Positions 10,961 to 62,252 are shown, counted from the stretch's first letter. The stretch: 64,000 nt of DNA from an uncultured Acidobacteriota bacterium (GCA_963736455.1 CAVTON010000001.1:1447221-1511220); one strand, 5' to 3'. Notes: generated by a model from the letters alone, not told the origin. Translations and numbers: made by a program.

Positions 10961-10965
10961 GAACG

Positions 10966-33202: not shown

Positions 33203-35506
33203 TCAGTGCGCCGGTGCTTCGAGGGCCGCGAGCTTGCGCGCGTACTCCTGCGCTTCGGCCGCGCGGCCGGCCTTGGCCGAAAAGGACGCCAGCGCCTCGA
33301 CGAGCTCGCGGTCGCCGTCGTGCTTTGCGTAGGCCGCCTCGAGCACGTCGAGCGCCGGACCGGTCCGGCCGGCGGCGTCGAGAGCGACCGCGTACACGTA
33401 CGCGTAGCGCGCTCGATCCGGAGCGAGCTCGGCCGCCTTACGCAGCTCCGCGAGCGCCTCCTCCAGACGCTTCTGGCGCACGAGGGAGAGCCCGATCGCG
33501 TGGTGGAGGCCGGCATCGGCCGGAGAGACCGCGAGACCCTCGCGCAGCGTCGCTTCGGAGTCCTTCTCGCGCCCCTGGGCTCGGTAGAGATCGGCCAGGT
33601 TCGCATAGGCCGCCGCTAGGGCGGGGGTGATCGCGATCGCACGCCGGTACTCCGCCTCGGCCTTCACGGCATCTCCGCGTTCGGCGTAGAGAGTTCCGAG
33701 GCTCGCGTGGGCCTCGGCGCGGTCGGCATCCACTTCCTGTGAGGCAATGAACTCGGCGACGCCTCGTTCGAGCTCCGTTCGATCCGAGGGACTCAGAGCG
33801 TCCGGCGGCGCGGCCGCGAGGGCGCGGGCCGCTTCGATGCGGACCGCGCGGACCGGATCGCGCAGCAGCGGCCCGGCGAGCGGAACTCGCGCGGGCGGAT
33901 CGAGGCCGCGGAGGGCGACGACCGCGCCGTAGCGCACGAGGGGGTCCGGGTCCGACAGCGCCCGGGCGAGGGCGCCACTCTCGCCGGGGCCGCCGCCGAG
34001 GAGTGTGGCTGCGGTCGCGCGGCGGATGGCCGGCTCCGCGGGGTCTTCCACCACCCGCGCCAGGGCGGCGCTGGCGCCGGCGCGACCTTCGCGACCGGCA
34101 TGGATCGCCTCGGCGTAGGGCGCGGCCGGACGCGCTCGCTCGCCCCACCATTTCTGCGCGGCGGCCGCGGCCCACGCGACGGAACGATCGGTGTGGCACC
34201 CCGTGCAGGCGTCCGGCGTCCCGAGCGCGGCGTCGAGGTCCGGCCTCGGGGTCCGGAAGCTGTGGTCGTGGCGGGCGTGGACGACCATGTACTTGCGCGT
34301 CGGCATGTGACAGGCGACGCAGCGCGCGCCCGGCGAACCGGCCGCATGGAAGTGGTGCTTCGGCGTATCGAACTTGTCCGCCGCATGGCACGCCATGCAC
34401 ACGCGGTCGGCCGAGCCCTTCACCTGGAGCGAGTGGGGATCGTGGCAATCCGTGCACGAGACGCCCGCGGCGTGCATCTTGCTCTGGAGGAATGAGCCGT
34501 ACTCGTAGACCTCGTCCTCGATCTGGCCGTCGGAAAAGTAAAGGCCTTCCTGGAGCAGCGCCGGCCGATAGGTCTGCATCAGGGGTTCGCCGAAGACGTA
34601 GTCGGCGGCGACGACGGACCGGCGGGCATGGCAGCGCGCGCACGTCTCGATCTCCGCCTGCGATGTGCGCGGGACGCTCCGCTTGGCGATGCCGGTGGCC
34701 GGGTCGACGTTCCACGTCGCCTTCGCCGGATCCTTCAGGACGACGGCGAGGCCCTTCTGCGGATCGTCCGGCGCGGGCTTTCCCGAGACCGACGCCTCGG
34801 CCCACGCGACGTGCGCCGAGCCCGGACCGTGGCAGGCCTCGCACGAGACGTCGAGCTCGGACCAGGTCGTCGCGTAGGAATCCGTCGCCTCCGCATAGCC
34901 CTTCTTCACGTTGGTCGAGTGGCAGTCCGCGCACATGAAGTTCCAGTTCTGGTAGGGCCCGGTCCAGTGCAGCGGGTCGGTATGCGCCACCTCTTCCTTC
35001 GGATAGAGATGGAACCAGCGCTGGCCGCCGTCCTTTGCCGGACGCGTGTCCCACACGACGTTCAGCGCCTGAAGCCGTCCTCCCGGAAAAGCGATCAGGT
35101 ATTGCTGCAGCGGCGAGACGCCGAACGTGTACGCGATCGGATATTCGTGGAGCTTGCCGTCCGGGCCGTCCGTCCGCGCAAAGAACTTTCCCTCGCGCTT
35201 GAAGAAGGTCGTCGTGACGCCGTAGTGCGTGAACCGGACGCCGTCGAAGTTGCCGAGCACCGTCTCGTCCGTCGCCTCCTGCATCGCGAGATCGTGGTGC
35301 GAGCCCTTCCACCGGCTCTCCTCGTCGGCGTGGCAGCGCGCGCACGCCGCGCGTCCGACGAAAGCCAGGGGGGCCGCCTTCGGAGCGGGTGGAGGCGTCT
35401 TGACCGCGCCGGCGACGTCTCGCCGGCCGCGGCAGGCCGCGGCCGCCGCCAGGAGGCAGACGGCCACGACAGCGGAAGACCGGGGACCGCGCACGACGCG
35501 GATCAT
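33203..35506 (-). CDS. Octahaem c-type cytochrome fused to HEAT/TPR repeats (lipoprotein-type signal)
   Basis: Eight CxxCH motifs: CARCH, CADCH, CEACH, CARCH, CTDCH, CMACH, CVACH, CTGCH. Signal with LLAAAAAC. C-terminal half has HEAT-like (DPDPLVRYGAVVAL) and TPR-like repeats. Confidence 0.85.
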   Translation of the reverse strand: MIRVVRGPRSSAVVAVCLLAAAAACRGRRDVAGAVKTPPPAPKAAPLAFVGRAACARCHADEESRWKGSHHDLAMQEATDETVLGNFDGVRFTHYGVTTTFFKREGKFFARTDGPDGKLHEYPIAYTFGVSPLQQYLIAFPGGRLQALNVVWDTRPAKDGGQRWFHLYPKEEVAHTDPLHWTGPYQNWNFMCADCHSTNVKKGYAEATDSYATTWSELDVSCEACHGPGSAHVAWAEASVSGKPAPDDPQKGLAVVLKDPAKATWNVDPATGIAKRSVPRTSQAEIETCARCHARRSVVAADYVFGEPLMQTYRPALLQEGLYFSDGQIEDEVYEYGSFLQSKMHAAGVSCTDCHDPHSLQVKGSADRVCMACHAADKFDTPKHHFHAAGSPGARCVACHMPTRKYMVVHARHDHSFRTPRPDLDAALGTPDACTGCHTDRSVAWAAAAAQKWWGERARPAAPYAEAIHAGREGRAGASAALARVVEDPAEPAIRRATAATLLGGGPGESGALARALSDPDPLVRYGAVVALRGLDPPARVPLAGPLLRDPVRAVRIEAARALAAAPPDALSPSDRTELERGVAEFIASQEVDADRAEAHASLGTLYAERGDAVKAEAEYRRAIAITPALAAAYANLADLYRAQGREKDSEATLREGLAVSPADAGLHHAIGLSLVRQKRLEEALAELRKAAELAPDRARYAYVYAVALDAAGRTGPALDVLEAAYAKHDGDRELVEALASFSAKAGRAAEAQEYARKLAALEAPAH

Positions 35507-38901: not shown

Positions 38902-40455
38902 CTAGTCACCGGTCGCGTTTGGCGCGGTTTGCAGCATCTCGAGAGCCTGGTCGAGGCTGAAGCTGCCGGCCTTCTGGCTCGGCGGGAATTCCTTGAAGGT
39001 GGCCAGGAACTGCCCCACGTACTGCTGGGCCGGCACGAGCACGAAGGCGCGGTCGACCCGCCACGTTCCGTAGGAGACGCTCTCGTGATCCGCCGTCTCG
39101 AAGGGATCCGACCGCAGGTTGAAGAGCTTCGGAAAACGCAGCGGCACGAACGGATCCTGCCAGACGTCCAGCCCGTGCGCGCGCTGCTCGGCGAAGACGA
39201 TCTTCCACTGGTTGTAGCGGAGACCGACGAGCGAGCCGTCGTCGTTGAAGTAGAAGAACTCGTGGCGGGGGCTCGGGGACTTCCCGGCGAGCGTGTCGGT
39301 CATGTTGTAACCGTCGATGTGGACCTTGTAGGTCTTGTCGCCGACCTTCATGCCCTTCAGCAGCTGGTCCTTGACGTTCGGCACGCCGGCCGCTGCGAGG
39401 AGCGTGGGCAGCATGTCCTCGTGCGCGAAGACGTCGTTGAAGACCGTGCCGGGCTTGATGACCCCGGGCCAGCGGATCGCGCAGGGGACGCGGTATCCGC
39501 CTTCCCAGTTGGTGGCCTTCTCGTTGCGGAACGGCGACGTGCCGCCGTCCGGCCAGGAGAACTTCTCCGCTCCGTTGTCGGTCGAGTACATGACGATGGT
39601 GTCGTTCTCGAGACCCAGCTCCTTCAACTTGTCGAGCAGCAGGCCGACGTCGTAGTCGTGCTCGAGCATGCCGTCGGGATAGACGCCGAGGCCGGTCTTG
39701 CCCTCCCACTGGGGCGAAAGGTGCGTCCAGATGTGCATGCGGGTCGCGTTCCACCAGAGGAAGAACGGCTTGTTCTCCTTCTTGGCCTCGTCCATGAAGC
39801 GGAGCGCCTCTTTGGTGAACTCGTCGTCCACGGTCTCCATCCGCTTCTTGGTGAGCGCTCCCGTCAGCTCGATCTTCTGCGTCCCGTCGGGGTTCGCCCA
39901 CGTATGGATCACGCCGCGGGTCGCGTACTTCTTCTGCATCTCGGGGTCCTTGAAGTAGTCGGGGTTCTCCGGCTCCTCTTCGGCATTCAGGTGATAGAGC
40001 GAACCGTAGAATTCGTGGAAGCCGTGCGCCGTCGGCAGCTGCTCGTCCCGATCGCCCAGGTGGTTCTTGCCGAACTGGCCGGTCTTGTATCCCTGAGCCT
40101 TCAGGAGCTCGGCGATCGTGACGTCCCGCGCCTGGAGTCCTTCCTTGGCGCCCGGCAGGCCGACCTTGAGGAGCCCGGTGCGGAAGGGAGACTGTCCCGT
40201 GATGAACGCGCCGCGCCCGGCGGTGCAGCTCTGCTGGCCGTACCAGTCGGTGAAGAGCGCCCCTTCTTTCGCGATGCGGTCGATGTTCGGCGTCCGGTAG
40301 CCCATCATCCCCTGGTTGTAGGCGCTGAGGTTCCAGTAGCCGATGTCGTCGCCCCAGATGATGAGGATGTTCGGCTTCTTCTGCGCCTGGCCCGTAGCCG
40401 GAAGCGACAGGACGCAGCCGAAGGTCAGCAGCAGGGTTCTCACGAATGTCTTCAT
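38902..40455 (-). CDS. Arylsulfatase (Cys-type, formylglycine-dependent), paralogue 1
   Basis: Signal peptide, KKPNILIIWGDDIGYWN, active-site SCTAGRGAFITG (C-x-A-x-R) and GKNHLGD. Confidence 0.92.
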   Translation of the reverse strand: MKTFVRTLLLTFGCVLSLPATGQAQKKPNILIIWGDDIGYWNLSAYNQGMMGYRTPNIDRIAKEGALFTDWYGQQSCTAGRGAFITGQSPFRTGLLKVGLPGAKEGLQARDVTIAELLKAQGYKTGQFGKNHLGDRDEQLPTAHGFHEFYGSLYHLNAEEEPENPDYFKDPEMQKKYATRGVIHTWANPDGTQKIELTGALTKKRMETVDDEFTKEALRFMDEAKKENKPFFLWWNATRMHIWTHLSPQWEGKTGLGVYPDGMLEHDYDVGLLLDKLKELGLENDTIVMYSTDNGAEKFSWPDGGTSPFRNEKATNWEGGYRVPCAIRWPGVIKPGTVFNDVFAHEDMLPTLLAAAGVPNVKDQLLKGMKVGDKTYKVHIDGYNMTDTLAGKSPSPRHEFFYFNDDGSLVGLRYNQWKIVFAEQRAHGLDVWQDPFVPLRFPKLFNLRSDPFETADHESVSYGTWRVDRAFVLVPAQQYVGQFLATFKEFPPSQKAGSFSLDQALEMLQTAPNATGD

Positions 40456-40626
40456 GCTTGGACTCCTATTCCGCGGGCTCTGCGGCGCGGGCTCTCATAG
40501 ACGTTCCGCAATCAGTCCGGATTCGGATGATGGCGCATTATTCATCAACGGTCTTTCGACGTTAAGCCCGATCGACTATCCATTTGCTCATGCCGGTCTC
40601 CTTCCGGGCCGTAACCGCGGTCTCCG

Positions 40627-41688
40627 TCATTCGAATGCGAAGACTTTCTTCCAGTCGTTCTTCATGCTGATGACGATCCAGTTCTTCTTGGCCTCGTCGT
40701 AGAGCGACTGGGTGAACGTCCCGACCTTGCTGGCAGGAAGGCCGTCCGCCGGGCCGTACGCGTACTCGCGCTTGGCGTCGTCGTGCAGCACGATCATCGC
40801 GAGGCGCGGGCCGTCGCCGCCCTTGGTGTATTCGAGCATCTGTTGATCGCCGGTCGAATTGCCGAAGGCCGCATACGGGCGGCGGCCGATCTCCAGGTAG
40901 ATGCCCTCCGCCTTGCCCGCGTTGTTGTTGTCGAGAATCAGCTTCGGCTCTTTGGTCAGGACGGGTTTGCCGTCCTTGCCGTAGCTGTACTTCGTGCCGA
41001 TCGACGTGCCGATCACCTGCTCCGGCGGAATCCCGTAGGTCGCTTCGGCATACGCGCGCACGAAATCCTGGCCGCCCCCGGTAACGATGTAGGTCCGGTA
41101 GCCGCTGGACCGGAGGTACTTGAGGACCTCCTGCATCGGGAGGTAGGTCAGATCCGTGTAGGGCCGGTTCCAGCGATGATCTTTGGCCGCGGCGATCCAC
41201 TTCCGGACCTCGGCCCGGAAGTCGTCGACCGGCATCCCGCTCAAGGTCACCATCGCGATCTTGACGAGGTCCTCTTCGGAGAGGTGAGCGATCGCGTCCC
41301 GACTGCCGGACATCACGGTCTTGAAGGGCTCGACGTTGGCGAGCTCGGGCTTCGCCTTTACGACGACGGGAATCCGGTCGAGGCAATAGACGAGCTGGGT
41401 GTAAACAGGTTGCTCGACCCAGAGCGTTCCGTCCTGATCGAACGTGGCGACGCGCTCCTCGGGCGCGACGAACTGCGGGCTGCCCTGGGTCGTCGTCGAT
41501 CGAACGAACTCGACGATGGCCTTCTTCGCGGCGCCGTCGTTCCAGGACGGCAGCGGATCGTTCGGCGCCTGGGCTCTCGCGGAGATCGCGCCGAACGCCA
41601 GAGCGAGCAGGACGGTGGTGATCGTTCGGTTCGAAAGCCGGCTTCTTCGGGTTCCCACTGAAAACCTCCTACGAGAACCCGCCGTCAC
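40627..41688 (-). CDS. Secreted HAD-superfamily (subfamily IB-like) hydrolase / phosphatase
   Basis: Signal peptide. Motif I FDQDGTLW, ..VTGGGQDFV.., and motif IV GNSTGDQQML. Confidence 0.8.
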   Translation of the reverse strand: MTAGSRRRFSVGTRRSRLSNRTITTVLLALAFGAISARAQAPNDPLPSWNDGAAKKAIVEFVRSTTTQGSPQFVAPEERVATFDQDGTLWVEQPVYTQLVYCLDRIPVVVKAKPELANVEPFKTVMSGSRDAIAHLSEEDLVKIAMVTLSGMPVDDFRAEVRKWIAAAKDHRWNRPYTDLTYLPMQEVLKYLRSSGYRTYIVTGGGQDFVRAYAEATYGIPPEQVIGTSIGTKYSYGKDGKPVLTKEPKLILDNNNAGKAEGIYLEIGRRPYAAFGNSTGDQQMLEYTKGGDGPRLAMIVLHDDAKREYAYGPADGLPASKVGTFTQSLYDEAKKNWIVISMKNDWKKVFAFE

Positions 41689-42209
41689 TCCGCGTGACGG
41701 CCGCTGTTGCGGAAAAAGAGATCGAAGAGCTTCCTCTCGCCGAGGGCCCGGTCGAGCTCCCAGATCGCGAAGAACGGAATGAACGCCACGAAGAGCACGA
41801 GGGTTCGGGCGAGGATCTCGTAGATGCCCTGGCTCAGCATCTCCTCGACGCTTGCGGCGAGCGTCCGGCCCTTGAGGAGCCCTTCGACGACGTGCTCGAA
41901 AACGGCGAACACCGCGACGAGGAGGGCGTAGAGGACCGATGCGCGAAGCGTCGCGAAGGCGAGCATTCGCCGGCTCGTCTTCTTTTCGATTCCGATGGCC
42001 TTGCCGATGAGGATGACCTTGGCGATGACCAGCGCCTCGATGATCGCGAACCCGAATCGAAAGGTCGCGACGCCGAGCTCCCGGGAGATGAGGATCCGAT
42101 AGACGTGGAACGCCACGAAGAACGCGGCGAGGTACACCGTGATCAGCAGCATGAGGCGGAACTCCTCGGCCGCCTTCTCCTTGAGTGTCGACTTCTTCTG
42201 GTCGTTCAT
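41685..42209 (-). CDS. Four-helix membrane protein, unknown function
   Basis: ATG at 42209 (MNDQKKSTLKEKAAEEF..) followed by four hydrophobic segments. Its stop overlaps the HAD start (4 nt). The rest of the track ORF to 42758 is read-through. Confidence 0.65.
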   Translation of the reverse strand: MNDQKKSTLKEKAAEEFRLMLLITVYLAAFFVAFHVYRILISRELGVATFRFGFAIIEALVIAKVILIGKAIGIEKKTSRRMLAFATLRASVLYALLVAVFAVFEHVVEGLLKGRTLAASVEEMLSQGIYEILARTLVLFVAFIPFFAIWELDRALGERKLFDLFFRNSGRHAE

Positions 42210-42223
42210 GGATTCAGGGGCCT

Positions 42224-42571
42224 TCAATTGCCCGGCGGCGCGAGGCTCTCGAGCTGCCGCAGACGCTTCATGGCCTGCATCGCCTGCAGCGAGTTGTGGT
42301 TGAGGCCGGCCGCATTGAGACTGCTGCCCCGCTGGAACGGGAAGTCCGGCAGCGTCAGCAGAAACGCCTTGAGCTTCTGCTCCACCGGGATGAAGAGCCA
42401 GATGTTGTCGCCGTACCAGCGGATGTACATGCCGGACTCGCGCGGGGCCTTCTCGAACGGGTCGGCTCGCAGATTGACGATCTCCGGCCAGCCGGGAACG
42501 TCGCGCGTGGCGGTGGCGATGTTGCCGTTCTCGAGGGCGGCGAAAACGGACCATGCTCGACGCGTGTTCAT
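42224..42571 (-). pseudogene. Remnant encoding only the C-terminal ~110 aa of an arylsulfatase
   Basis: ..EIVNLRADPFEKAP..FLLTLPDFPFQRGSSLNAAGLNHNSLQAMQAMKRL aligns with the C-terminus of the 38902..40455 sulfatase (..LFNLRSDPFETAD..FLATFKEFPPSQKAGSFSLDQALEMLQ). There is no catalytic N-terminal domain. Confidence 0.6.
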
Positions 42572-42634
42572 GAGATTTCCTTGGGCTCGAAAGAGACGGG
42601 CGGCCCTTTCGAGCCGCCCGCCGGACATCGCACG

Positions 42635-44338
42635 CTACTCGCCTGCGTGGCTGGCGACGTGCGCCTTCTTGAGCTGGTCCATGACCTGGGTCAGGTTGTA
42701 GCTCGCCGGATCCTGCATCGGGGGAAACTGCTGGTACGTCTCCAGCTCCTGGAGCCAAAGCGACTGCCCGATCGGGAGCATGTTCCAGTCGTAGATGTAT
42801 GCCGTCACCGGTCCCGCGAGGGAGCCGCCCATGCCGGTCAGCGTCTTGTATTGCTCGCCGAGCGAAGTCTCGAACGGATCGCGCCGGATGTTGACGACCT
42901 GGGCCCAGTGGTACGGCAGGGCGCCCGAGATGAAGCCCGCCGGAGCGTCGGAAACCATCGTGAAATAGATCTTCCAGTTCTTGTAGCGCACCGCCGACGG
43001 ATCCGCCCCGGAGTAGTAGAAGAAGACGTCGGTCGCCGCCTTCGGCGACTTGCCCGTCAGGTAGTCGATCTGGTCGTGGCCATCGAGGGTCGTCTTGACG
43101 ATCCCCGGGTATTTGCCGGCCTCGATCTCCTTCTTCAAACCGTCGCCCTTCGGGCCGCCGGCGATGTCGACGAACGTTGGCACCCAGTCGAGGGACGCGA
43201 AGATGTCGTTGAAGATCGTTCCCGGCTTGACGACTCCCTTCCAGCGGATGACGCAGGGAGCGCGCATGCCGCCTTCCCAGGTGGAGAGCTTCCCGCCCTT
43301 GAACGGCGTGGTGCCGCCGTCGGGGTACGTGATCGTCTCGGCGCCATTGTCGGTCGTGAAGACGACGATCGTGTTGTCGAGCTGTCCCATGTCTTCGAGT
43401 TTCTTCAAAACGACGCCGATGTTGTCGTCCATCTGCTTCATTCCGGCCTCGTTGACGCCCCAGTCCTTGCCGCCCGCCTGGCCGACCATCGCCATGTACT
43501 TGTCCGACAGTACGGTCGTGATGTGCATGCGCGCCGGGTTGTACCAGACGAAGAAGGGCTTGTTGGTCTTCCTGGGATCGTTGCGGTCGAGGAAGTCGAC
43601 GACGTGGGAGGAGATCTCCTCATCGACGGTCTTCGAGCGCTCGAGGGTCAACGGTCCCTGGTCCTGGCAGCTCTGGCCCTTCGACGAGCCGTCGGACGAC
43701 TTGCACCAGATCACCGGGCGCGGAGGCGTCAGGCACGTCGTCGTCCTGGGATCGACTGCTCCCGGAACGTCCGACAGACCCGGGATGGGAGTGTTCTTGC
43801 ACGGCGGCGCGACCGCCTGCTGTGTCGGCGTCTTGTTGATGTCCGGGAAGCTGACGCCCTGCATGGCATCCAGGTGATACAGGTAGCCCCAGAACTCCTG
43901 AAAGCCGTGCGCCGTCGGCAGCGCGTCGGTGTGGTCGCCGAGATGGTTCTTGCCGAACTCGCCCGTCGTGTACCCGAGATCGTAGAGAAACTTGGCGAGC
44001 GCCGGCGTGCCGGGCCGCAGATAACTGGGGCTGCCGGGCAGCTGCGGCGGAATCATGCCCGTGCGGAGCGGATGCATGCCGGTAAAGAAGGCGTTGCGCC
44101 CCGCCGTGCAGCTCTGCTCGGCATAGTACGTCATGAAGATGCCGCCCTCGTTGCCGATGCGGTCGATGTTCGGCGTCTCCCCGACCATCAGCCCGCGGTG
44201 GTAGATGCTCGGCTGCATCCAGCCGATGTCGTCGCCCATGATGAAGAGGATGTTCGGCTTTTTCTCCTGGGCCTGGACCGATGCCGTAATCAGGACACCA
44301 ACCGATACTGCGAACCATCGAATCAGGGTTCGATTCAT
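42635..44338 (-). CDS. Arylsulfatase (Cys-type), paralogue 2, with a Cys-rich insertion
   Basis: ATG at 44338 (MNRTLIRWFAVSVGVLITASVQAQEKKPNILFIMGDDIGW), SCTAGRNAFFTG and GKNHLGD. The upstream 560 codons of track ORF 42635..46018 are a shadow of the next gene. Confidence 0.92.
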   Translation of the reverse strand: MNRTLIRWFAVSVGVLITASVQAQEKKPNILFIMGDDIGWMQPSIYHRGLMVGETPNIDRIGNEGGIFMTYYAEQSCTAGRNAFFTGMHPLRTGMIPPQLPGSPSYLRPGTPALAKFLYDLGYTTGEFGKNHLGDHTDALPTAHGFQEFWGYLYHLDAMQGVSFPDINKTPTQQAVAPPCKNTPIPGLSDVPGAVDPRTTTCLTPPRPVIWCKSSDGSSKGQSCQDQGPLTLERSKTVDEEISSHVVDFLDRNDPRKTNKPFFVWYNPARMHITTVLSDKYMAMVGQAGGKDWGVNEAGMKQMDDNIGVVLKKLEDMGQLDNTIVVFTTDNGAETITYPDGGTTPFKGGKLSTWEGGMRAPCVIRWKGVVKPGTIFNDIFASLDWVPTFVDIAGGPKGDGLKKEIEAGKYPGIVKTTLDGHDQIDYLTGKSPKAATDVFFYYSGADPSAVRYKNWKIYFTMVSDAPAGFISGALPYHWAQVVNIRRDPFETSLGEQYKTLTGMGGSLAGPVTAYIYDWNMLPIGQSLWLQELETYQQFPPMQDPASYNLTQVMDQLKKAHVASHAGE

Positions 44339-44367
44339 GTCAGGTTCCTCCTTGTTTCCGATCGGCC

Positions 44368-46026
44368 TCAATCGCCCGCGGCCTTGACGTTGACCTTCGA
44401 CGGGTCGACCAGCGGCACCGGGTTCTCCGGGTGCTGGAGGTTCGGGATCAGGTCGTTCGACGCGCCGCCCGGATACCGCTTGATGCTCGGGTACTTCACG
44501 ATCGACTCGTCGAAATCGACGATCACCGGGTAGATCAGCGACAGGACCCAGCCGTTGTCCATTCCCGCCCACTGTCCGGGCGATGACTTGGGCAGGCGCG
44601 ACGCCATGGCGCCGTTGAAGACCATGTCGTACTTCTCGAAGGGATCCATCGTGAGGCAGTAGAGGGAGCCGATCGAGCCGAGGTTCTGATTGGGGCCCAG
44701 CCACGTGTCCTTGGCGGTGTAGAGGTACTTCCACGCGATGTGGACGTCGTCGTTGTTGGGGTCGCCGCCGATGTCGTACCGTGCGCCCTGGAAGTTCTCG
44801 CCGTCGATGTAAATCCAGGAGTTGCGCGCGGAATGTTTCGCCTTGCCCATGACGTAGGCGCTGTTGTCGATCGAGTCGAAATAGATCGGCTTTCCGTCGT
44901 TGCCCTTCCACGCGCCGTGGGGCGGAGGCGTGACGCCGACCATCGAGGAAAGCGTCGCCCACAGATCGATGTGGGACATCATCTCGTCGTACGAGACGCT
45001 CTGGGGAATGTGGTTTGGCCACCACATGATGCCGGGAACGCGCCATCCGGCCTCGAACGCGGAGCCCTTCTCCCCCCGGAACGGGTGCGTGCCGGCGTCG
45101 GGATACGCGTCCTGCCACGCGCCGTTGTCGGCGGTGAAGACCACGATCGTGTTGGGCGCCACCTGCCGGATCGCCTCCATGATCCGCCCGACGTTGTCGT
45201 CCATCTCCATCACCGAGTCGGAGTACCGGCCGAGGTGCGACTTGCCGGCGAACTTCGGCGCCGGATTGTTCGGGTTGTGCATCTTCATGAAGTTGACGTC
45301 CATGAAGAAGGGCTTGCTGTCGTTGGCGTGCGCCTTGATGTATTCGATCGCGGAGTCCGCCTGGCGCACGTCGAAGGTGGCGAGGTAGTCCCAGGTGATC
45401 TCCGCCACCTTGCGCGCGGGCTTCCCGGCCTCGCCCTCCCACTCGAACATGTTGACGGCGCCGAAGTAGTCCTTCGCGAATACCGGGTTGTAGGACGGGA
45501 ACCAGGGATGGAACCACTCGTTCGTGTCGCTGTACGTGTAGACGCCGGGGTAATACGCGCCGAACTCCCGCATCGTCTGGTAACCGTGCTCGATCGGGTA
45601 GGCCTCCGGCTTGTCGCCGAGGTGCCACTTGCCCGAGAAATAGGTCGAGTAACCGTGATCGCGGAACCACTCCGCGATCGTGGGCGTCTCCTTGCGCAGG
45701 GAGTTCTCGTCGCCCGGGGCGACGACGATCGACAGCGCCGAGCGGATCGGGATGCGGCCCGTGTTGAACGACGCACGGCCGGCCGTGCAGCTCGCCTGCC
45801 CGTACCAGCTCGTGAACATCGCCCCCTCCTTGGCGAGGCGATCCAGGTTGGGCGTCGGGTGGCCGAGCGCCCGTCCACCTCCGGAATACGCACCCAGGTC
45901 GTTCCAGCCCGTGTCGTCGCTCATGAGGACGAGGACGTTGGGCTTCTTCGTCTGCGCCTGGACCGATGCCGTGAGGAAGGTTCCGACAACGATGCCGAAC
46001 AAGAATCTGCGGGGCCATCTGGCCAT
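44368..46026 (-). CDS. Arylsulfatase (Cys-type), paralogue 3
   Basis: ATG at 46026 preceded by AAGGAG (MARWPRRFLFGIVVGTFLTASVQAQTKKPNVLVLMSDDTGW), SCTAGRASFNTG and GKWHLGD. Confidence 0.92.
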   Translation of the reverse strand: MARWPRRFLFGIVVGTFLTASVQAQTKKPNVLVLMSDDTGWNDLGAYSGGGRALGHPTPNLDRLAKEGAMFTSWYGQASCTAGRASFNTGRIPIRSALSIVVAPGDENSLRKETPTIAEWFRDHGYSTYFSGKWHLGDKPEAYPIEHGYQTMREFGAYYPGVYTYSDTNEWFHPWFPSYNPVFAKDYFGAVNMFEWEGEAGKPARKVAEITWDYLATFDVRQADSAIEYIKAHANDSKPFFMDVNFMKMHNPNNPAPKFAGKSHLGRYSDSVMEMDDNVGRIMEAIRQVAPNTIVVFTADNGAWQDAYPDAGTHPFRGEKGSAFEAGWRVPGIMWWPNHIPQSVSYDEMMSHIDLWATLSSMVGVTPPPHGAWKGNDGKPIYFDSIDNSAYVMGKAKHSARNSWIYIDGENFQGARYDIGGDPNNDDVHIAWKYLYTAKDTWLGPNQNLGSIGSLYCLTMDPFEKYDMVFNGAMASRLPKSSPGQWAGMDNGWVLSLIYPVIVDFDESIVKYPSIKRYPGGASNDLIPNLQHPENPVPLVDPSKVNVKAAGD

Positions 46027-55516: not shown

Positions 55517-56242
55517 CTACGGGTAATAGAGTCCGAGCGCCTTCGCGAGAAACACCGCCATCTGTTTTCGGGTCACGACCGTGTCCGGACAGAAATTTCC
55601 GCTCCCGCATCCGGCCGTGACGCCCGATGCCGCCAGCGCCTCGATGTAGGGAAATGCGAGATCGGTCGCGGGAACGTCCGCGAACGTCGGCGACGCGGGC
55701 GCCGGACTGACTTGAAGTTTGTAGCCCACGACGGCGCCGCTGAACGACGTCGTGCCGTCTCCGTTCGTGCCGAAGACCGCTTCGAGGATCAGCCGATGGT
55801 CGTCGTCGTTCGTGTAGCCGAGCCCGCTCAGCTCGGCGAAGGCGGCCGTGCAGCCCTGGTTGGCGGCGCCGGTGATTTGCGTCAGCAGCGTGAGATTGGT
55901 GTTGGTCGCCGACGCGCCGTAGAGCAGGAGAAGGATCGAGCTTCCGCCGTCCGGCTGCGAATTGCAGAAGTCGAACTCGAGGTTCTGGAGCAGGGCTCCC
56001 GGCGGCAGGGACGCCGACGCGAAGAAAAAGGAGAACGGAGTGAGCGTATAGCGGCGAGCCGGGCTTCCGAAGTCGGAATAGGAAACGGCCGACGACGACG
56101 GCGAGAACTGCCACTCCGGCACCGTGACGTAGGTCGTGTTCGTCGTTCCCCACGTTTGAGGACCGTCCGGCGATCCGGCGAGCGCGCGACCCGCGGCCGC
56201 GAGCGCCAGGACGATCGACGCCGGGACTTTCCAGGATCTCAT
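55517..56242 (-). CDS. Secreted variable-domain / SLH-like-module protein, paralogue A
   Basis: ATG at 56242 with a GAGGTG Shine-Dalgarno sequence. Signal peptide IVLALAAAGRALAG, ..SLPPGALLQNLEFDFCNS.., ..GYKLQVSPAPASPTFADVPATDLAFPYIEALAASGVTAGCGSGNFCPDTVVTRKQMAVFLAKALGLYYP. Confidence 0.75.
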   Translation of the reverse strand: MRSWKVPASIVLALAAAGRALAGSPDGPQTWGTTNTTYVTVPEWQFSPSSSAVSYSDFGSPARRYTLTPFSFFFASASLPPGALLQNLEFDFCNSQPDGGSSILLLLYGASATNTNLTLLTQITGAANQGCTAAFAELSGLGYTNDDDHRLILEAVFGTNGDGTTSFSGAVVGYKLQVSPAPASPTFADVPATDLAFPYIEALAASGVTAGCGSGNFCPDTVVTRKQMAVFLAKALGLYYP

Positions 56243-56256
56243 TTCACACCTCTTCG

Positions 56257-57621
56257 TCAGTTGTAGGAGAGGCCGAGGGCCTTCGCGAGGAAGACGGCCA
56301 TCTGGCGGCGCGTGACGGGATTCGCCGGGCAGAAGTTGCCGCCGCCGCAGCCGCCGGTGATCCCGGAGGCCGCCAGCGCTTCGACGTGGGCGAAGGCGGG
56401 ATCGGACGACGGCACGTCGGCAAATGTCGGCGTGGCCGGAGGCGGGCTCACCTGCAGGTGATAGCGGAATTTCGCACCCTGGAAGCGCGCCTGGGAGCCG
56501 AAGGGGCTCTGAAACAGGAGCTCGATGACCGGCTTGAAATCGCCGACGGTATAGCCGACGTCGTGTGCCACTCCCGAGGTACACCCTCCCCCCGGCACGG
56601 AGTGAATTTCGACGAAGATCCCGTCGATCGCAGAGTTCCAGACGGTGAATATCATCGGGTCCAAGCTCCCCGCCCGATCGTCGCAGGAATCAAACTCGAC
56701 TTCGTCGATGACGGCACCCGCCGGCAAATCGACCGCCGTCAGGAGAGCGGGGTTGGGCCCCTCGTCTCCCGGGAGGAGGTAGCGGGAGAGCTGCGGCGGG
56801 CCCGTGTCGGCAAACTGAACCAATTCCGAGGCGGGCCGGAATTCCCACTCGGGAACGTAGAGGGTCGTCTCGACCGTTCCGAAACGATAGGCGAGGCCGA
56901 GGGCGCGAGAAAGAAAGACCGCCATCTGCCGCCGCGTGACGGATTGATCGGGACAGAAGTCCCCTCCTCCACAGCCCGCCGTGATGCCGGATGCGGCGAG
57001 GGCTTCGACGTACGGATACGCGGGATCGGTCGTGGGGACGTCGCCGAAAGTCGGTGTGAGCGGCGGCCGGCTGACCTGGAGCTGATACGTGAGCGTCACG
57101 TCGGACAGGTAGGTGATCGGCCCGGGCGCCCCCGGGTTTGGTCCGAAGATCGCCCATACCAGGAGGCGATGGGAGAGGCTCACGGTGTAGTTCAACGCCG
57201 TGAGATCCACCGACTGAGACGTACACCCGTCGTTGGCGTGCGCCGTGACCGTGCCGAGAGAGCCGAGGAAGTTTCCGCTCGCGTCCGTGTCCTCCAGAAT
57301 CACCAGGAAGTCGTCGCCGCCCGGAGGATTGCCGTTGCAGTAGTCGACGTTGAGCCCGACGAGCCGGCCCCCTGAAGGGATGTGTGGCGAACCGAAGAAG
57401 GCGCCGTACGGCGACGTCGTGGCCAGGACCAGGTTGAAACCCCCGGGAAATCCCCACTGCAGGAAGTCCATGGTCGAGTCGATCGGCGAGAAGTCGTATG
57501 GGGTGAGTTGATAGGTCGCGGTGTTCGCGGTCCCGAACTTGGGGACGGCTTCGGCCGCGAAGCACCGGGCGCCGGCGAGCGCGATCGCGAGACCGGCCGA
57601 GAGGAGAATCCGCGTCTTCAT
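56257..57621 (-). CDS. Double-unit member of the same family (two variable domains, two SLH-like modules), paralogue B
   Basis: ATG at 57621 after GGAAGGGAG. Unit 1 ends ..FGDVPTTDPAYPYVEALAASGITAGCGGGDFCPDQSVTRRQMAVFLSRALGLAY. It runs straight into unit 2 (RFGTVETTLYVPEWEF..), which ends ..FADVPSSDPAFAHVEALAASGITGGCGGGNFCPANPVTRRQMAVFLAKALGLSYN. Confidence 0.75.
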   Translation of the reverse strand: MKTRILLSAGLAIALAGARCFAAEAVPKFGTANTATYQLTPYDFSPIDSTMDFLQWGFPGGFNLVLATTSPYGAFFGSPHIPSGGRLVGLNVDYCNGNPPGGDDFLVILEDTDASGNFLGSLGTVTAHANDGCTSQSVDLTALNYTVSLSHRLLVWAIFGPNPGAPGPITYLSDVTLTYQLQVSRPPLTPTFGDVPTTDPAYPYVEALAASGITAGCGGGDFCPDQSVTRRQMAVFLSRALGLAYRFGTVETTLYVPEWEFRPASELVQFADTGPPQLSRYLLPGDEGPNPALLTAVDLPAGAVIDEVEFDSCDDRAGSLDPMIFTVWNSAIDGIFVEIHSVPGGGCTSGVAHDVGYTVGDFKPVIELLFQSPFGSQARFQGAKFRYHLQVSPPPATPTFADVPSSDPAFAHVEALAASGITGGCGGGNFCPANPVTRRQMAVFLAKALGLSYN

Positions 57622-57641
57622 GACTCCCTTCCTTGCGGCCT

Positions 57642-58394
57642 TCATGGCCACTGCAGCCCCAGCGCCTTCGCCAGGAACACCGCCATCTGCCGCCGCGTCA
57701 GCGGCGCATAGGGGCAGTAGTTGCCGTTGCCGCATCCCGCCGTGATGCCCGAGGCCACGAGTGCCTCGATGAACTGAAATGCGGGATCGCTCGTCGGCAC
57801 ATCGTTGAACGTGGCGGTCGGCGGCGCGGGCCTGACCTCCAGCCGGTAGTACAGGTTGACCCCGGCCAGGGCCTGGGTCCCGTTGACCGCGTCGATCCCT
57901 GCAATGAGAACGAGCTGGTTGTCGTAGTGGTTGACCTGATAGTTGAGTGACGTCAGATCCCCGATCTCGAACTCACCGCAGCCGTTCGACGAAGCGCTGT
58001 AGACACCGGTCCCCATCTCCGTCATGTTGGTCCCGTCGTACCAGGACTTGTAGAGATGAACGCCGAGCTGGTCGTTCGGGTTGGGGTCGGTGTTGCAGAA
58101 ATACACCTCGATCCCCGTCAGCAGAGCTCCATCGGGAAGCCGCGGCACGGCCGCGAAGCATTGCCCGACGCAGTTCCCCGGAGATCTCGCAAGGGTGTTG
58201 GGGAAGAGGTAGTCGGCGTAGGTCGTCGCAGAGTCCCGGGGCACAAACTCCGTGATCGGGACGTCGTAGATCGAGTCATGGCTGATTCCATACGTCTTCG
58301 CCCGGAGCTGAGGCAGCCCGTCCTCCGCGACGCCGGAGGTGGGCAATACGAGCGCCGCCGCGAAGAAGGCGCCGATCCCGATTCCTCGCTTCAT
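57642..58394 (-). CDS. Secreted variable-domain / SLH-like-module protein, paralogue C
   Basis: ATG at 58394, 7 nt after GGAGG. Signal peptide GAFFAAALVLPTSGVA, ..RLPDGALLTGIEVYFCNT.., C-terminus FNDVPTSDPAFQFIEALVASGITAGCGNGNYCPYAPLTRRQMAVFLAKALGLQWP. Confidence 0.75.
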   Translation of the reverse strand: MKRGIGIGAFFAAALVLPTSGVAEDGLPQLRAKTYGISHDSIYDVPITEFVPRDSATTYADYLFPNTLARSPGNCVGQCFAAVPRLPDGALLTGIEVYFCNTDPNPNDQLGVHLYKSWYDGTNMTEMGTGVYSASSNGCGEFEIGDLTSLNYQVNHYDNQLVLIAGIDAVNGTQALAGVNLYYRLEVRPAPPTATFNDVPTSDPAFQFIEALVASGITAGCGNGNYCPYAPLTRRQMAVFLAKALGLQWP

Positions 58395-58417
58395 GGTCAT
58401 CCTCCGTTGCGAACGCC

Positions 58418-59170
58418 TCATGGCCACTGCAGTCCGAGGGCCTTCGCGAGGAAGACCGCCATCTGCCGCCGCGTGAGCGGCGCATCGGGACAAAAGTTGC
58501 CGTTCCCGCAGCCGACGGTGACGCCAGACGCAACAAGCGCCTCGATGTACTGGAATCCGGGGTCCGTCGTCGGCACGTCGTTGAAGTCGGCGAACAGCGG
58601 CGACGGACTGACCTGGAGCGTGTATCCGAGAACGACACCGGCGAAGCGCGTGCTGGACGTTCCCGATGTGGTCTCGACCGCGACCGTGAGCTGGTTGCGG
58701 TAGTTGTCGACCTGGAAGCCGCCGGCGGGAGGCAGGCTGAATGCCGCGAACCCGCACGGGAGCGTGCCATTGCTGCTCGACCCGATCGCGCCACTGCTGC
58801 ACCCGCTGCCGAGGTTGTCGCAGAAGAAGAACGTGGCCACGACGTCGTTCACCGCGTCCTCGTCGCAGGAGTCGAGCTCGTAGTACGTGACGAGCGCGCC
58901 GGACGGCAAATGAGGAGACGCGACGAAGATTGCCGGGCCGCCCGAGGAGTAACGCTGGAAGACGCCGAAGTTCGAGTAGCCGGAATCGGTGTAGACGGCG
59001 CCGTGCGCCGTGTCGAGCGGCGTGAACTCGGAGGCGGCGATCCGATAGTAGCTGAGCTGGTTCACGCCGTAGGTCTTCGGGGCGAGCGAAGCCTTCGCCG
59101 GCGCCTGCGCGAGCAGGCGACCGCTCAGAAGGACGAGGATCAAGCCGAGGCCGAGGCGCGAAATCTTCAT
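58418..59170 (-). CDS. Secreted variable-domain / SLH-like-module protein, paralogue D
   Basis: ATG at 59170 after AAAGGAAG. Signal peptide LGLGLILVLLSGRLLAQA, ..HLPSGALVTYYELDSCDE.., C-terminus FNDVPTTDPGFQYIEALVASGVTVGCGNGNFCPDAPLTRRQMAVFLAKALGLQWP. Confidence 0.75.
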   Translation of the reverse strand: MKISRLGLGLILVLLSGRLLAQAPAKASLAPKTYGVNQLSYYRIAASEFTPLDTAHGAVYTDSGYSNFGVFQRYSSGGPAIFVASPHLPSGALVTYYELDSCDEDAVNDVVATFFFCDNLGSGCSSGAIGSSSNGTLPCGFAAFSLPPAGGFQVDNYRNQLTVAVETTSGTSSTRFAGVVLGYTLQVSPSPLFADFNDVPTTDPGFQYIEALVASGVTVGCGNGNFCPDAPLTRRQMAVFLAKALGLQWP

Positions 59171-59388
59171 GGATTCTTCCTTTCTCGGCCTCCCGACGGC
59201 CGCTGCGACCCGAGGGTCTTCATGAGGCGAATTCCGAGCATCGAAAGAACTCTCGCGAGGGGATTCTGGCGTTCCAGCCGCCGTCCGCAATTACTGCAGT
59301 AGCTCTCGTTACCGGCGAGGGGACAGCCGCAGCGGGAGCAGGCGGCCGTCGGGGACTCGGCGTCGTTCATGTGGGACAGACTGCCCAT
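59167..59388 (-). CDS. Small zinc-ribbon protein (67-73 aa) heading the paralogue operon
   Basis: CSRCGCPL-x8-YCSNCGRRL (CxxC..CxxC) followed by a basic tail. Its stop overlaps the paralogue D start (ATGA). An alternative ATG lies at 59370. Coding status is not certain. Confidence 0.45.
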   Translation of the reverse strand: MGSLSHMNDAESPTAACSRCGCPLAGNESYCSNCGRRLERQNPLARVLSMLGIRLMKTLGSQRPSGGRERKNP

Positions 59389-59468: not shown

Positions 59469-62252
59469 TTGAGCCCGAAAGAGATCTACGAGTTCGGCCC
59501 GTTCCGGCTGGACGTCGCCGAGCACCGGCTCCTCGAGGGCGATCGCGGGATCGCCCTGAAGCCGAAGGTCTTCGAAACACTGGTCCTGCTCGTCCGAAAT
59601 GCCGGGCACCTGCTCTCCAAGCAGGACCTGATGACGCAGTTGTGGCCGGATACCGTCGTCGACGAGACGAACCTCAACAAGAACGTCTGGCTGATCCGCC
59701 GCGCCCTCGGCGGAAGCGGCGACTCGGCGGAATACATCGAGACGGTGCCGCGGATCGGTTACCGGTTCGTCGGGAGCGTGTGCCGTGCCGAACCGGTTGG
59801 ACCGCCGTCGGCGGAACCGGCCGCTCTCGCCGCAGCGGAGCCGGCCACGTCCGCACGTGCGACTCCCCCGCCGCCGCCCGTCCCTCGGAGGCATTCCCGG
59901 ACGCCGGCGGTGGTCGCTGCGGCCGCGATCCTCCTCCTCGGCGCTTTCGGCGCGTGGGTCGCGTGGCGGTCCGCCCATGCGAGTGCCGGCTCCACCGACG
60001 GCGCCTTGCGTCCGACGATCTCCGTTCTCGGCTTCCGCAATCTCTCGAACCGTCCGGATCTCGACTGGATCGGCACCGCGCTCTCCGAGATGCTCCAGGC
60101 CGAGCTCGCGCCGGGATCGACGTACCGCCTGATGCCCGTCGAGTCCGCTGACCGACTTCGCCGCGACCTCGCCCTCGAGCAGACCGGCAGCCTGTCGCGC
60201 GAGTCGCTCGCCCGTCTGCGGCGGGCAGCCGCCGTGGACGAGGTCGTCGGCGGCTCCTACGTGTCCGCCGGGTCCGGATCGGCCGACGCACGAATCCGGA
60301 TCGACGTGCTGGTCCAGGACGCGCGGACGGGCGAGACCGTCGGATCCGTGACGGAGACCGGCGAGGCGTCGAGCCTGCTCGACATGGTCGCCTCGCTCGG
60401 CTCCCGCCTGCGCCTCTCGCTTCGCGAGCCCGACCGCGCCTCGGCGGCTGCCGGAGCGCGGGAGACGCTCCCCCGCGGCGCCACGGCTCTGCGGCTCTAC
60501 GCCGAAGGACTTCGAAAGCTGCGCGACTCCGACGCGCTCGCTGCCCGCGATCTCCTTCTCGAGGCTGTCGCGGCGGAGCCCGACTTCCCGCTCGCTCACG
60601 CGGCGCTCGGCCGGGTCTATTCGACCCTCGGCTACGAGGAGAAGGCGCGCCTCGAGCTGCAGCAGGCGTTCGAGCATTCGCACGGCCTGCCGCAAAAGGA
60701 ACAGCTGGAGGTCGAATCCTCCTATCGCGCGGCCAACAAGGAATGGGACAAGGCCATCGCGCTCTGTCAGGAGCTCGACCGGCTCTCGCCCGACGACCTC
60801 GAGAACGGGCTCCCCTTCGCCGCCCTGGAGATCAACGCCTCACGCCGACAGGACGCGCTCGCGGTCCTGAAGAGACTCGAGCGCCTTCCGCCCCCGACCG
60901 GCAACGATCCGCGGATCGACCTGCTCGAATCCCGCGCGTTGCTCGGAACCGACCCGAAGGCGGCGCTCGCGGCGGCCGAGCGCGGGCTGGCGGAGAGCCG
61001 GGCGCGCCGCGTGCGGTCGGTCGAGGCCAACGCCCTCCTCGACCGGGCCGTCGCCTCCCAGACGCTCGGTTCCCCCGACAAGGCCTCGGTCGACGAGGCG
61101 ATGCGGATCTTCGCCGAGATCGGCGACTCCGGCGGCGAGGCTCGCGCGGCTCACATCCTCGGAAACGTTCAGTTCGACGAAGGCGATGCGGACGGAGCCC
61201 GTGCGTCCTTCCAGCGTGCCGTCGACCTTTCCGACCGCATCGGCTACGTTCTCGAGAAGGCGGCTGCCGTCGCGAGCCTCTCGAGGGTCGCGTCGCTCCG
61301 AGGCGAAGCCGCCGAGGCCGAGCGCCTGGTCGTCGAGGCGAATTCCATCTGGCGTGCCGTGCCCGATTTCCGCCAGCTGCCGTGGGGACTGAACGCCCTC
61401 GGCTCGATCCGACTCGGCCAGGGAAGGCTCAGTGAGGCCGAGGCCCTTCACCGGGAGGCGCTCCAGATGGGCCGGGAACGCGGCGACGCCGGCAGTTACC
61501 GCCACGAGGGATACAGCGGGCTCGTCGCCGCGCTCGCCGCGCAAGGGCGGCTCGACGAGGCCTCGCGAGTCGCCGACGAGGCGCTCGCCGCCAGCCGAAA
61601 GATGGCCGATCCGAGCTGGGTCGCGCAGCACGAGGCCGAGATCGGCACGCTGGCATTCGAACGCGGCCGGTTCGACGAGGCAGACCGCCTGTTTGCCGAA
61701 GCGCTCGCGCTTCGAAAGCAGAAGGAGGAGTACACGGTACCCGAGAGCGAGCTCCTGATCGCACACCTGCGCCTCGAAGAGCGCCGCTGGGAGGACGCGC
61801 GCACGCTGGCCGGGAGGGCATCGCGCGGGTTCGCCGCCGCTGGCCGCAAGGCCGATCAGGCCGATGCCGACGCGGTGAGCGCCGAGGCGCTTCTGTCTTC
61901 CGGGCGCAGGGAGGAGGCGAAGAAGACGGTCGAAACCGCCGCCGGGCTTCTCGACGACAAGGCCTCCCCCGACGCCCGCATTCCCGTCCTTCTCGCGACC
62001 GCCCGCGTCGAGACCGCCCTCGGACGCCCGGATGCCGCCCGCTCCGAGATCGAGACGGCGACACGGCTGGCGGAGAGAATCGCTTGGAAGAACCTCGTCC
62101 TCGAGGTGCGGCTCGCGGCCGCGGAGGTCGACGCCGGATCGGGCGACGCCAGAGCGACCGTCGAGTCGGCGGCCGTCGCCGCGGACGCGCGTCTTCTCGG
62201 TTTCGAGCGAATCGCCGTTCGCGCGGATCGGCTGACGAACCGGAAGTCGTGA
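59469..62252 (+). CDS. CadC/ToxR-like membrane-bound transcriptional regulator: OmpR/PhoB-type winged helix, TM, extracytoplasmic domain and TPR array
   Basis: ..YEFGPFRLDVAEHRLLEGDRGIALKPKVFETLVLLVRNAGHLLSKQDLMTQLWPDTVVDETNLNKNVWLIRRAL..YIETVPRIGYRF.. TM segment AVVAAAAILLLGAFGAWVAW, ..ISVLGFRNLSNRPDLDWIG.., then about 550 aa of TPR-like helices. TTG start per the track. Confidence 0.85.
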   Translation: MSPKEIYEFGPFRLDVAEHRLLEGDRGIALKPKVFETLVLLVRNAGHLLSKQDLMTQLWPDTVVDETNLNKNVWLIRRALGGSGDSAEYIETVPRIGYRFVGSVCRAEPVGPPSAEPAALAAAEPATSARATPPPPPVPRRHSRTPAVVAAAAILLLGAFGAWVAWRSAHASAGSTDGALRPTISVLGFRNLSNRPDLDWIGTALSEMLQAELAPGSTYRLMPVESADRLRRDLALEQTGSLSRESLARLRRAAAVDEVVGGSYVSAGSGSADARIRIDVLVQDARTGETVGSVTETGEASSLLDMVASLGSRLRLSLREPDRASAAAGARETLPRGATALRLYAEGLRKLRDSDALAARDLLLEAVAAEPDFPLAHAALGRVYSTLGYEEKARLELQQAFEHSHGLPQKEQLEVESSYRAANKEWDKAIALCQELDRLSPDDLENGLPFAALEINASRRQDALAVLKRLERLPPPTGNDPRIDLLESRALLGTDPKAALAAAERGLAESRARRVRSVEANALLDRAVASQTLGSPDKASVDEAMRIFAEIGDSGGEARAAHILGNVQFDEGDADGARASFQRAVDLSDRIGYVLEKAAAVASLSRVASLRGEAAEAERLVVEANSIWRAVPDFRQLPWGLNALGSIRLGQGRLSEAEALHREALQMGRERGDAGSYRHEGYSGLVAALAAQGRLDEASRVADEALAASRKMADPSWVAQHEAEIGTLAFERGRFDEADRLFAEALALRKQKEEYTVPESELLIAHLRLEERRWEDARTLAGRASRGFAAAGRKADQADADAVSAEALLSSGRREEAKKTVETAAGLLDDKASPDARIPVLLATARVETALGRPDAARSEIETATRLAERIAWKNLVLEVRLAAAEVDAGSGDARATVESAAVAADARLLGFERIAVRADRLTNRKS

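Follow-up and report, generated by a model that had tools for sequence, protein, structure and literature searches.

Results

An operon of small SLH proteins beside a divergent regulator

We analyzed a 64,000-nucleotide (64-kb) stretch of bacterial DNA (CAVTON010000001.1:1447221-1511220), referred to here as the window, in which a minus-strand array at positions 55517-59388 encodes a zinc-ribbon protein followed by four paralogous proteins that carry S-layer homology (SLH) modules. The window has a GC content of ~69%, and the homologues of its proteins are named from metagenome-assembled genomes (MAGs) of Thermoanaerobaculia or Acidobacteriota. The host is a soil acidobacterium of the class Thermoanaerobaculia. 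It is diderm, as the window contains genes for LpxC (6617-7525), an OmpA-family protein (29792-31171), and a TonB_C-containing protein. The array and its divergent neighbor comprise the following genes, where a unit is one head domain with its SLH module.

59469-62252, plus strand: regulator with a winged helix-turn-helix (wHTH), a transmembrane (TM) helix and tetratricopeptide repeats (TPR), ToxR/CadC-like; Pfam Trans_reg_C 2.7e-14 (residues 27-100), TPR_MalT 1.8e-15
59167-59388, minus strand: zinc-ribbon open reading frame (ORF), 73 aa, first gene of the operon; its TGA stop overlaps the ATG of gene A (ATGA)
58418-59170, minus strand: gene A (unit A), 250 aa; signal peptide, predicted jelly-roll head and one SLH module; Pfam SLH 3e-09, 37.1 bits; matches the head and SLH hidden Markov models (HMMs) of the family
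57642-58394, minus strand: gene B (unit B), 250 aa; signal peptide, head and one SLH module; Pfam SLH 3.9e-07; matches the family HMMs
56257-57621, minus strand: gene C (units C1 and C2), 454 aa; signal peptide, head C1, SLH, head C2, SLH; Pfam SLH in two stretches, 3.5e-20
55517-56242, minus strand: gene D (unit D), 241 aa; signal peptide, head and one SLH module; Pfam SLH 7.1e-08

An earlier note on this DNA had proposed that the array is an undescribed envelope system. Its gene coordinates and junctions (the ATGA overlap and gaps of 23 nt between A and B, 20 nt between B and C, and 14 nt between C and D) are exact and, as it had stated for the paralogues, a purine-rich motif resembling a Shine-Dalgarno sequence, read directly from the DNA, precedes every gene start. 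Gene B has a second possible in-frame ATG at 58400. The description of four paralogues with one module each fits A, B, and D but not gene C, which is a fusion of two units, so that the four genes encode five units. Five direct repeats of ~225 nt each correspond to the five SLH-coding segments; because these are just 64-78% identical at the DNA level, we rejected recent gene conversion among them. The signal peptides terminate in AQA, GVA, CFA, and ALA, as read from the translations, and a lipoprotein reading was discarded because no lipobox is present. A scan for sigma-70 promoters returned no site (0; expected number, 0.3). Sites resembling terminators occurred at chance level, with no excess, which supports the reading of the array as an operon.

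The C-terminal module has the features of a bona fide SLH domain

Each of the five modules in 55517-59170 scored above the Pfam gathering score for SLH (PF00395, 20.8 bits), with E values from 4e-7 to 3.5e-20; bit scores were 30.4-37.1 for each single unit and 72.2 for the two modules of gene C together. We built a family profile from an alignment of 94 sequences, in which residue invariance was also counted. Compared with PDB sequences, this profile matched SbsB (4aq1, 6.5e-13), Sap (3pyw, 1.2e-10), OmpM (8bz2/8bys, ~1e-8 to 1e-7), and SlpA (7zgx, 0.019), always at the C-terminal module. By these sequence matches, the module that the earlier note had called SLH-like is a bona fide SLH domain.

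The landmarks that the note had described as shared by the paralogues recur as invariant positions across the family alignment. In the SLH module these are F187, D189, V190, G207, G211, C212, C218, T224, and R225. Structures of SpaA define three SLH positions that contact the ligand, namely Gly29 (the second Gly of GIIxG), Arg43 (in TRAE), and Trp13 (PMC6081394). G211 corresponds to Gly29 and R225 to Arg43, the TRAE arginine, and both are kept in 94 of 94 sequences.

The extra Cys pair noted earlier is real (C212 and C218), but it is not a hallmark of this family. Canonical triple-SLH proteins from the same genomes contain the same pair, within GCGxGxxCP, in 51 of 63 SLH repeats, and it is also present in many multi-domain SLH proteins, some of them named from Chloroflexi/Anaerolineales. 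Large proteins with a C-terminal triple SLH are numerous in these genomes (for example L004 18216-18761, and others in L011, L030, L043, L047, and L054; L numbers denote related loci). They often bear a second Cys pair (PCxGxFxDVxCP) and often neighbor single-SLH genes.

The head is predicted to be a lectin-like jelly roll

The variable N-terminal part of each unit, which we call the head, is a β-sandwich of ~150-155 aa. Its invariant residues are P80 and G82 (in the LPxGA motif), C93, C131, Y174, and L176, giving a signature of LPxGA, an invariant Cys93-Cys131 pair, and a terminal YxLQVSP strand. The earlier note did not recognize this domain, and no curated family in Pfam or NCBIfam matches it; nor did we find a match among PDB sequences, or to any carbohydrate-binding module (CBM) family in Pfam even at E<=1. 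The sole NCBIfam matches were to the SLH tail of NF033190, far under its cut-off.

An AlphaFold2 model of unit D, computed with the family alignment as input, had a mean predicted local distance difference test (pLDDT) score of 84, with the all-β head (residues ~40-175) above 95. The top Foldseek matches of the head were 1gmm, 7zvo, 1uxx, 2cdo, and 6sgf (target-normalized template modeling [TM] scores of 0.55-0.64, E of 1e-5 to 1e-4). The head is thereby placed among the jelly rolls of CBM6 (1gmm/1uxx), CBM35, CBM86, and BT0996-C, and it also resembles lectin-like domains of phage tailspikes; for CBM modules and tailspike domains, Foldseek gave a probability of ~1.0, E values of 1e-5 to 6e-7, and TM scores of ~0.6. 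As modeled, the head is thus a jelly-roll β-sandwich of lectin-like fold. An OmpM-like outer-membrane tether, consisting of an N-terminal SLH, a stalk, and a C-terminal porin, was considered and rejected because the units contain no barrel; their SLH module is C-terminal, and helices of stalk length are absent.

A profile of the head alone matched 3,294 clusters (50% identity) at E<=1e-3 and 816 at E<=1e-10, mostly proteins of 230-280 aa. Some ~240-aa proteins with the same type of SLH module were missed by the head HMM; their heads are diverged versions that keep the LPxGA and QVS motifs (hhalign probability 64%). A minority of the matches are ~500-aa proteins with three tandem, distant heads that lack both the SLH module and the Cys pair. 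These three-tandem-head proteins include P0151, P0177, P0194, and P0226 (~500 aa) and P0237 (990 aa).

A regulator and a zinc-ribbon gene are conserved beside the arrays

The divergently transcribed regulator has partial N-terminal matches to CadC/HilA in NCBIfam, one hydrophobic helix at about residues 143-165, as read from the translation, and then a TPR region of ~760 aa. Its orthologues adjoin arrays in six other loci (L001, L002, L006, L007, L023, and L019). In the same six loci, the zinc-ribbon core, AC.RCGCPLAGNESYCSNCGR (CxxC...CxxC), is encoded directly upstream of arrays or pairs. Because both genes recur beside arrays in these loci, the regulator, the zinc-ribbon gene, and the array are one conserved unit, which bears out the earlier grouping of all three. 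The same synteny suggests a regulatory link between the regulator and the array.

The zinc-ribbon ORF had been put forward as a gene of the system. Its match to Zn_Ribbon_1 (22.2 bits) is under the Pfam cut-off of 25, so the Pfam assignment falls short. The gene itself is genuine, since the core is kept in six other loci and substitutions in pairwise comparison gather at third codon positions (38/28/140 at positions 1/2/3). In five of the six relatives (L002, L006, L007, L019, and L023), the protein continues beyond the ribbon into a TM helix and then a tail of 40-60 aa. The proteins of the window and L001 have no TM helix, and the window ORF ends in the ATGA overlap. We rejected a frameshift as the cause of the missing helix, as no alternative frame encodes one.

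Within the arrays, the order C1-C2-D is constant in L001, L002, L006, and L007. The composition of the 5′ part, containing A and B, varies from species to species, through changes in the order of these two units and through replacement of the second unit. L002 also has a 386-aa ORF with no Pfam match (10814-11974), which lies between the orthologue of D and a further unit.

The heads of gene C have been exchanged between lineages

The second unit of gene C lacks its own signal peptide, and the boundary between C1 and C2 lies near 56887. The head-SLH-head-SLH fusion is not an artefact of assembly, as it is kept in ~20 public database orthologues of 423-466 aa (including P0264-P0281) and is also present in L001, L002, L006, and L007. 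We compared the window with L001, its closest relative (roughly 95% identical), in sliding windows of 200 nt. The flanking DNA is 88-100% identical. Identity falls at the beginning of gene C, stays low up to the point where its second SLH module begins (57606-56436), and is back at 96% beyond that point, defining a replaced segment that in L001 lies at ~8700-9800.

56436-57606, minus strand: segment replaced by recombination, covering head C1, SLH-C1, and head C2; 61-76% identity to L001

The two C heads of L001 are 84% and 79% identical to those of L007, compared with 62% and 52% to those of the window, whereas units B and D of the window and L001 are 92% and 93% identical, following the relationship of the genomes. 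Because the C heads of L001 are nearest those of L007 while B and D track the genomes, these alignments indicate that the heads of gene C have been exchanged between lineages by recombination; a conserved SLH-coding segment marks one of the breakpoints. Unit D is the most conserved unit between species (orthologues 65-93% identical). The pattern in gene C is typical of diversifying selection, of which these proteins are likely targets in soil populations.

Most members of the family are singletons

To collect related loci, we used GTDB contigs (one genome per species), recruiting them through SLH patterns and confirming them by whole-protein tblastn. At least 254 stretches encode relatives. 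The best 80 of these are nearly all from Thermoanaerobaculia/Acidobacteriota MAGs, with single matches from MAGs labeled Planctomycetota, Gemmatimonadales, and Sedimenticola. In an HMM scan of 83 loci, most copies were singletons, some formed pairs or convergent pairs, and large arrays were few (L034, L035, L038, and L066). Several genomes contain many dispersed copies, and the window itself has a further one, 22 kb from the array.

32421-33179, plus strand: sixth, divergent family member, a singleton; family HMM scores of 37 bits (head) and 96 bits (SLH)

The head of this sixth copy lacks the Cys pair, the Cys loop of its SLH module is longer (GCQASPPLYCP), and its Pfam SLH score of 18.8 bits is below the gathering score. 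Another singleton, in L003/L008 (contig_11883, 10001-10711), lies between a UbiA/GT2/amine-oxidase group and four large genes for PMT_2 (ArnT-like) glycosyltransferases, and represents another envelope-glycan context.

Our literature search found no paper on the family, in keeping with the earlier view that it is undescribed, but databases already name its homologues "S-layer homology domain-containing protein". This name, the SLH anchor, and the many copies per genome could suggest that the units build a true S-layer lattice, a paracrystalline coat made of small paralogues. We consider this highly improbable. The units are 241-250 aa (~22 kDa when mature), with one SLH module and a single ~150-aa head, whereas Sap, SbsB, and SpaA are large (chains of 814-892 residues), with triple SLH domains and multi-domain crystallization regions. 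Moreover, dozens of divergent, scattered singletons are unlike one abundant lattice protein, and the literature search found no report of an S-layer for this class.

Equivalent SLH modules point to homotrimers as the default

Single SLH modules form homotrimers in OmpM and SlpA (PMC10628300) and in LysBT1 (PMC12285257). Among the paralogues of the window, SLH modules are 69-87% identical and heads 17-33%; family-wide, the mean identities are 72% and 32%. Gly29 and Arg43 are invariant across the modules of the paralogues. As the modules are near-identical and the heads are not, the paralogous SLH modules are nearly equivalent, which is how homotrimeric single-SLH proteins look and is unlike the differentiated SLH1, SLH2, and SLH3 of single-chain trimers. 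With singletons making up most of the family, the SLH module must be able to function without partners from an array, and self-association is the natural default. Mixed trimers would be possible since the modules are so similar. From this analysis, homotrimers are the simpler reading, with room for mixing, and the hetero-oligomeric composite anchor proposed in the earlier note is not supported and is not required, given that most family members in 78 loci are singletons or pairs and that the modules are undifferentiated.

A stricter version of the idea is that the paralogues are obligate partners whose SLH modules form defined heterotrimers displaying mixed heads, for example gene C with one single unit. 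The two SLH modules of gene C alone could not close a threefold spindle, and one added single unit would bring the number to three; the C1-C2-D order is constant in four other loci, tight operon packing favors co-translation, and near-identical SLH interfaces would permit mixing. We nevertheless hold obligate heterotrimers to be decidedly unlikely, because most members in the 78 loci are singletons far from other copies, the modules are not split into three types as in single-chain trimers, and the make-up of the array in its 5′ half differs between species. The model of gene C shows no confident packing between its SLH modules, but their low confidence means that it favors neither side.

CsaB-like genes adjoin the three largest arrays

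Searching all collected loci by jackhmmer from the E. coli WcaK sequence gave exactly three matches. Each of the three largest arrays, which belong to different species, has one of them as a divergently oriented neighbor.

L034, 2090-4156, divergent to the array: CsaB-like gene, PF04230 ~1e-37
L035, 2-1729, divergent to the array: CsaB-like gene, PF04230 ~1e-37
L066, 2-2872, divergent to the array: CsaB-like gene, PF04230 ~1e-37

WcaK models reach only 37-51 bits for the three proteins, and the Joint Genome Institute (JGI) labels their nearest database relatives as CsaB. Named relatives include proteins from Chloroflexota, Anaerolineales, Bryobacteraceae, and Thermoanaerobaculia. One of the three is fused to a coiled-coil-like region, and that of L066 is fused to a GT1 glycosyltransferase. 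This linkage is the strongest support for anchoring of SLH modules to a pyruvylated glycan in this class.

Other genes in the window

Three sulfatase genes, encoding proteins of 517, 578, and 544 aa, lie on the minus strand at 38902-46002, with a gene for a HAD-family hydrolase and two small ORFs without a family match between the first and the second. L001 also has sulfatase fragments nearby. A 946-aa protein of unusual architecture, combining a response-regulator receiver, a Ser/Thr kinase, and a C-terminal TonB_C domain, is encoded at 24036-26876 (minus strand). Immediately beyond the 3′ end of the sixth family copy, 33203-35467 on the opposite (minus) strand encodes a 754-aa protein with multiheme cytochrome c motifs (Cytochrome_C7, paired CXXCH) and HEAT and TPR repeats.

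Discussion

With moderate confidence, we interpret the array as a regulated operon whose products are envelope proteins with lectin-like heads and SLH anchors, probably trimeric (homotrimers by default) and bound to a pyruvylated glycan. The units would be exported by the Sec pathway to the envelope of a diderm Thermoanaerobaculia bacterium, each consisting of a lectin-like jelly-roll head joined by a short Pro-rich linker to a single SLH module. Three such modules would associate into a three-pronged SLH spindle, as a homotrimer by default and possibly as a mixed trimer. The grooves of the spindle are predicted to bind a glycan that is attached to the cell wall and pyruvylated by a CsaB-like pyruvyl transferase, so that each anchor would display three variable heads. 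The rapid divergence of the heads and their exchange by recombination suggest that they recognize variable ligands, probably glycans. Expression would probably be controlled by the ToxR/CadC-like wHTH-TPR regulator together with the co-conserved zinc-ribbon protein.

Several observations weigh against this proposal. In the window, a Pfam search of ~50 ORFs found no CsaB-like gene, the companion that the earlier note had thought worth seeking; such a gene stands beside arrays in three related species, but those proteins score 207-210 bits against TIGR03609, the CsaB equivalog model, just under its cut-off of 213.1. The third ligand contact, Trp13, is not conserved: Pro is aligned there in 66 of 94 sequences, with an aromatic residue (F/Y) two residues downstream of this position in 93 of 94. 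A published survey treats SLH/CsaB anchoring as a hallmark of Terrabacteria that is practically absent from Gracilicutes, so that the mechanism is extrapolated from other phyla. The diderm host leaves two candidate compartments for the anchor, the periplasmic face of the wall or the cell surface. The likeness of the heads to CBMs is at the level of the fold alone (~10% identity, TM scores of ~0.6) and is not proof of sugar binding. Finally, in the AlphaFold2 model of gene C, the heads reach pLDDT values of 80-95 while both SLH modules stay at 36-54, with no confident pairing.

Some of these points could also mean that the SLH-like module serves mainly in trimerization or folding, or binds another ligand such as lipopolysaccharide, capsule, or unmodified peptidoglycan, making the proteins soluble or surface-located trimeric lectins or adhesins that are not anchored to a pyruvylated polymer. 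Beyond the variable Trp13 position and the window without CsaB, the TRAE-equivalent motif of the family reads TR(R/G)Q, with Gln as its fourth residue, and the specificity of OmpM in Negativicutes has shifted to polyaminated peptidoglycan (PMC10628300). Hypervariability and recombination, as seen in the heads, are typical of proteins exposed at the surface, and the head also occurs without an SLH module in the ~500-aa proteins with three tandem heads. We judge this account unlikely, since Arg43 and Gly29, which contact the pyruvate, are both invariant, a CsaB-like gene lies beside arrays in three species, and the TRAQ variant contributes to binding in SLH3 of SpaA (PMC6081394).

Our preferred reading, trimeric lectin-like proteins on a pyruvylated wall glycan, has a more ambitious extension. 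Thermoanaerobaculia may run a full CsaB/SLH system, possibly acquired from Chloroflexota-like donors, that displays small lectin-like trimers as a combinatorial coat, in which dozens of paralogues combine freely through their near-identical single SLH modules and the heads diversify and swap by recombination under pressure from phages, predators, or variable glycans. We regard such a coat as quite improbable; if it exists, it would be a previously unrecognized type of variable envelope layer.

The anchoring principle itself is already known. What the loci add is a large, unstudied family in an unexpected phylum: SLH proteins are numerous in an acidobacterial class, and they include a class-restricted family of small single-SLH proteins with an uncurated head. 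If anchoring is confirmed, the known range of the SLH/CsaB envelope system would widen, a new domain family of lectin-like fold would be defined, and the arrays would offer a compact natural system in which to ask whether SLH modules of different proteins form heterotrimers.

Comparison with known systems

The closest parallels to the proposed single-module anchor are OmpM of Veillonella, SlpA of Deinococcus/Thermus, and LysBT1, an endolysin of a Brevibacillus prophage. Like the units described here, each has one SLH module per chain, and the Gly of GIIxG and the Arg of TRxx are conserved in both; three chains provide the three prongs of the spindle, with equivalent binding grooves (PMC10628300, PMC12285257). 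The units differ in that their SLH module is C-terminal and there is no coiled-coil stalk. Their partner domain is a soluble β-sandwich of ~150 aa rather than a β-barrel porin or an amidase, and their host is an acidobacterium (Gracilicutes), whereas the hosts of OmpM, SlpA, and LysBT1 belong to Terrabacteria. Also unlike those proteins, the family has many paralogues per genome, some of them arrayed.

The triple-SLH anchors of Sap, SbsB, and SpaA, which depend on CsaB and a pyruvylated secondary cell-wall polymer, belong to the same domain family and share ligand-contact residues with the units. As in those systems, a CsaB-like pyruvyl transferase is genetically linked, here in three related species. 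However, the units have one module in place of three differentiated repeats, Trp13 is not conserved, and a conserved Cys pair occupies the loop after GIIxG. Their cargo is a small lectin-like head, in contrast to a lattice-forming or enzymatic region.

In its predicted jelly-roll β-sandwich the head resembles CBM6, CBM35, CBM86, and the lectin-like domains of phage tailspikes, but it is set apart from them by its low identity, the lack of a Pfam CBM match, and its own signature of LPxGA, Cys93-Cys131, and YxLQVSP. The neighboring regulator resembles ToxR and CadC in having a cytoplasmic winged helix of the OmpR type, a single TM helix, and a large domain outside the cytoplasm, although its sensor is a long TPR array. 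ToxR/CadC systems include small membrane partners such as ToxS and TcpH; the counterpart here would be the small zinc-ribbon protein, which has a TM helix in most relatives but none in the window and no similarity to ToxS or TcpH.

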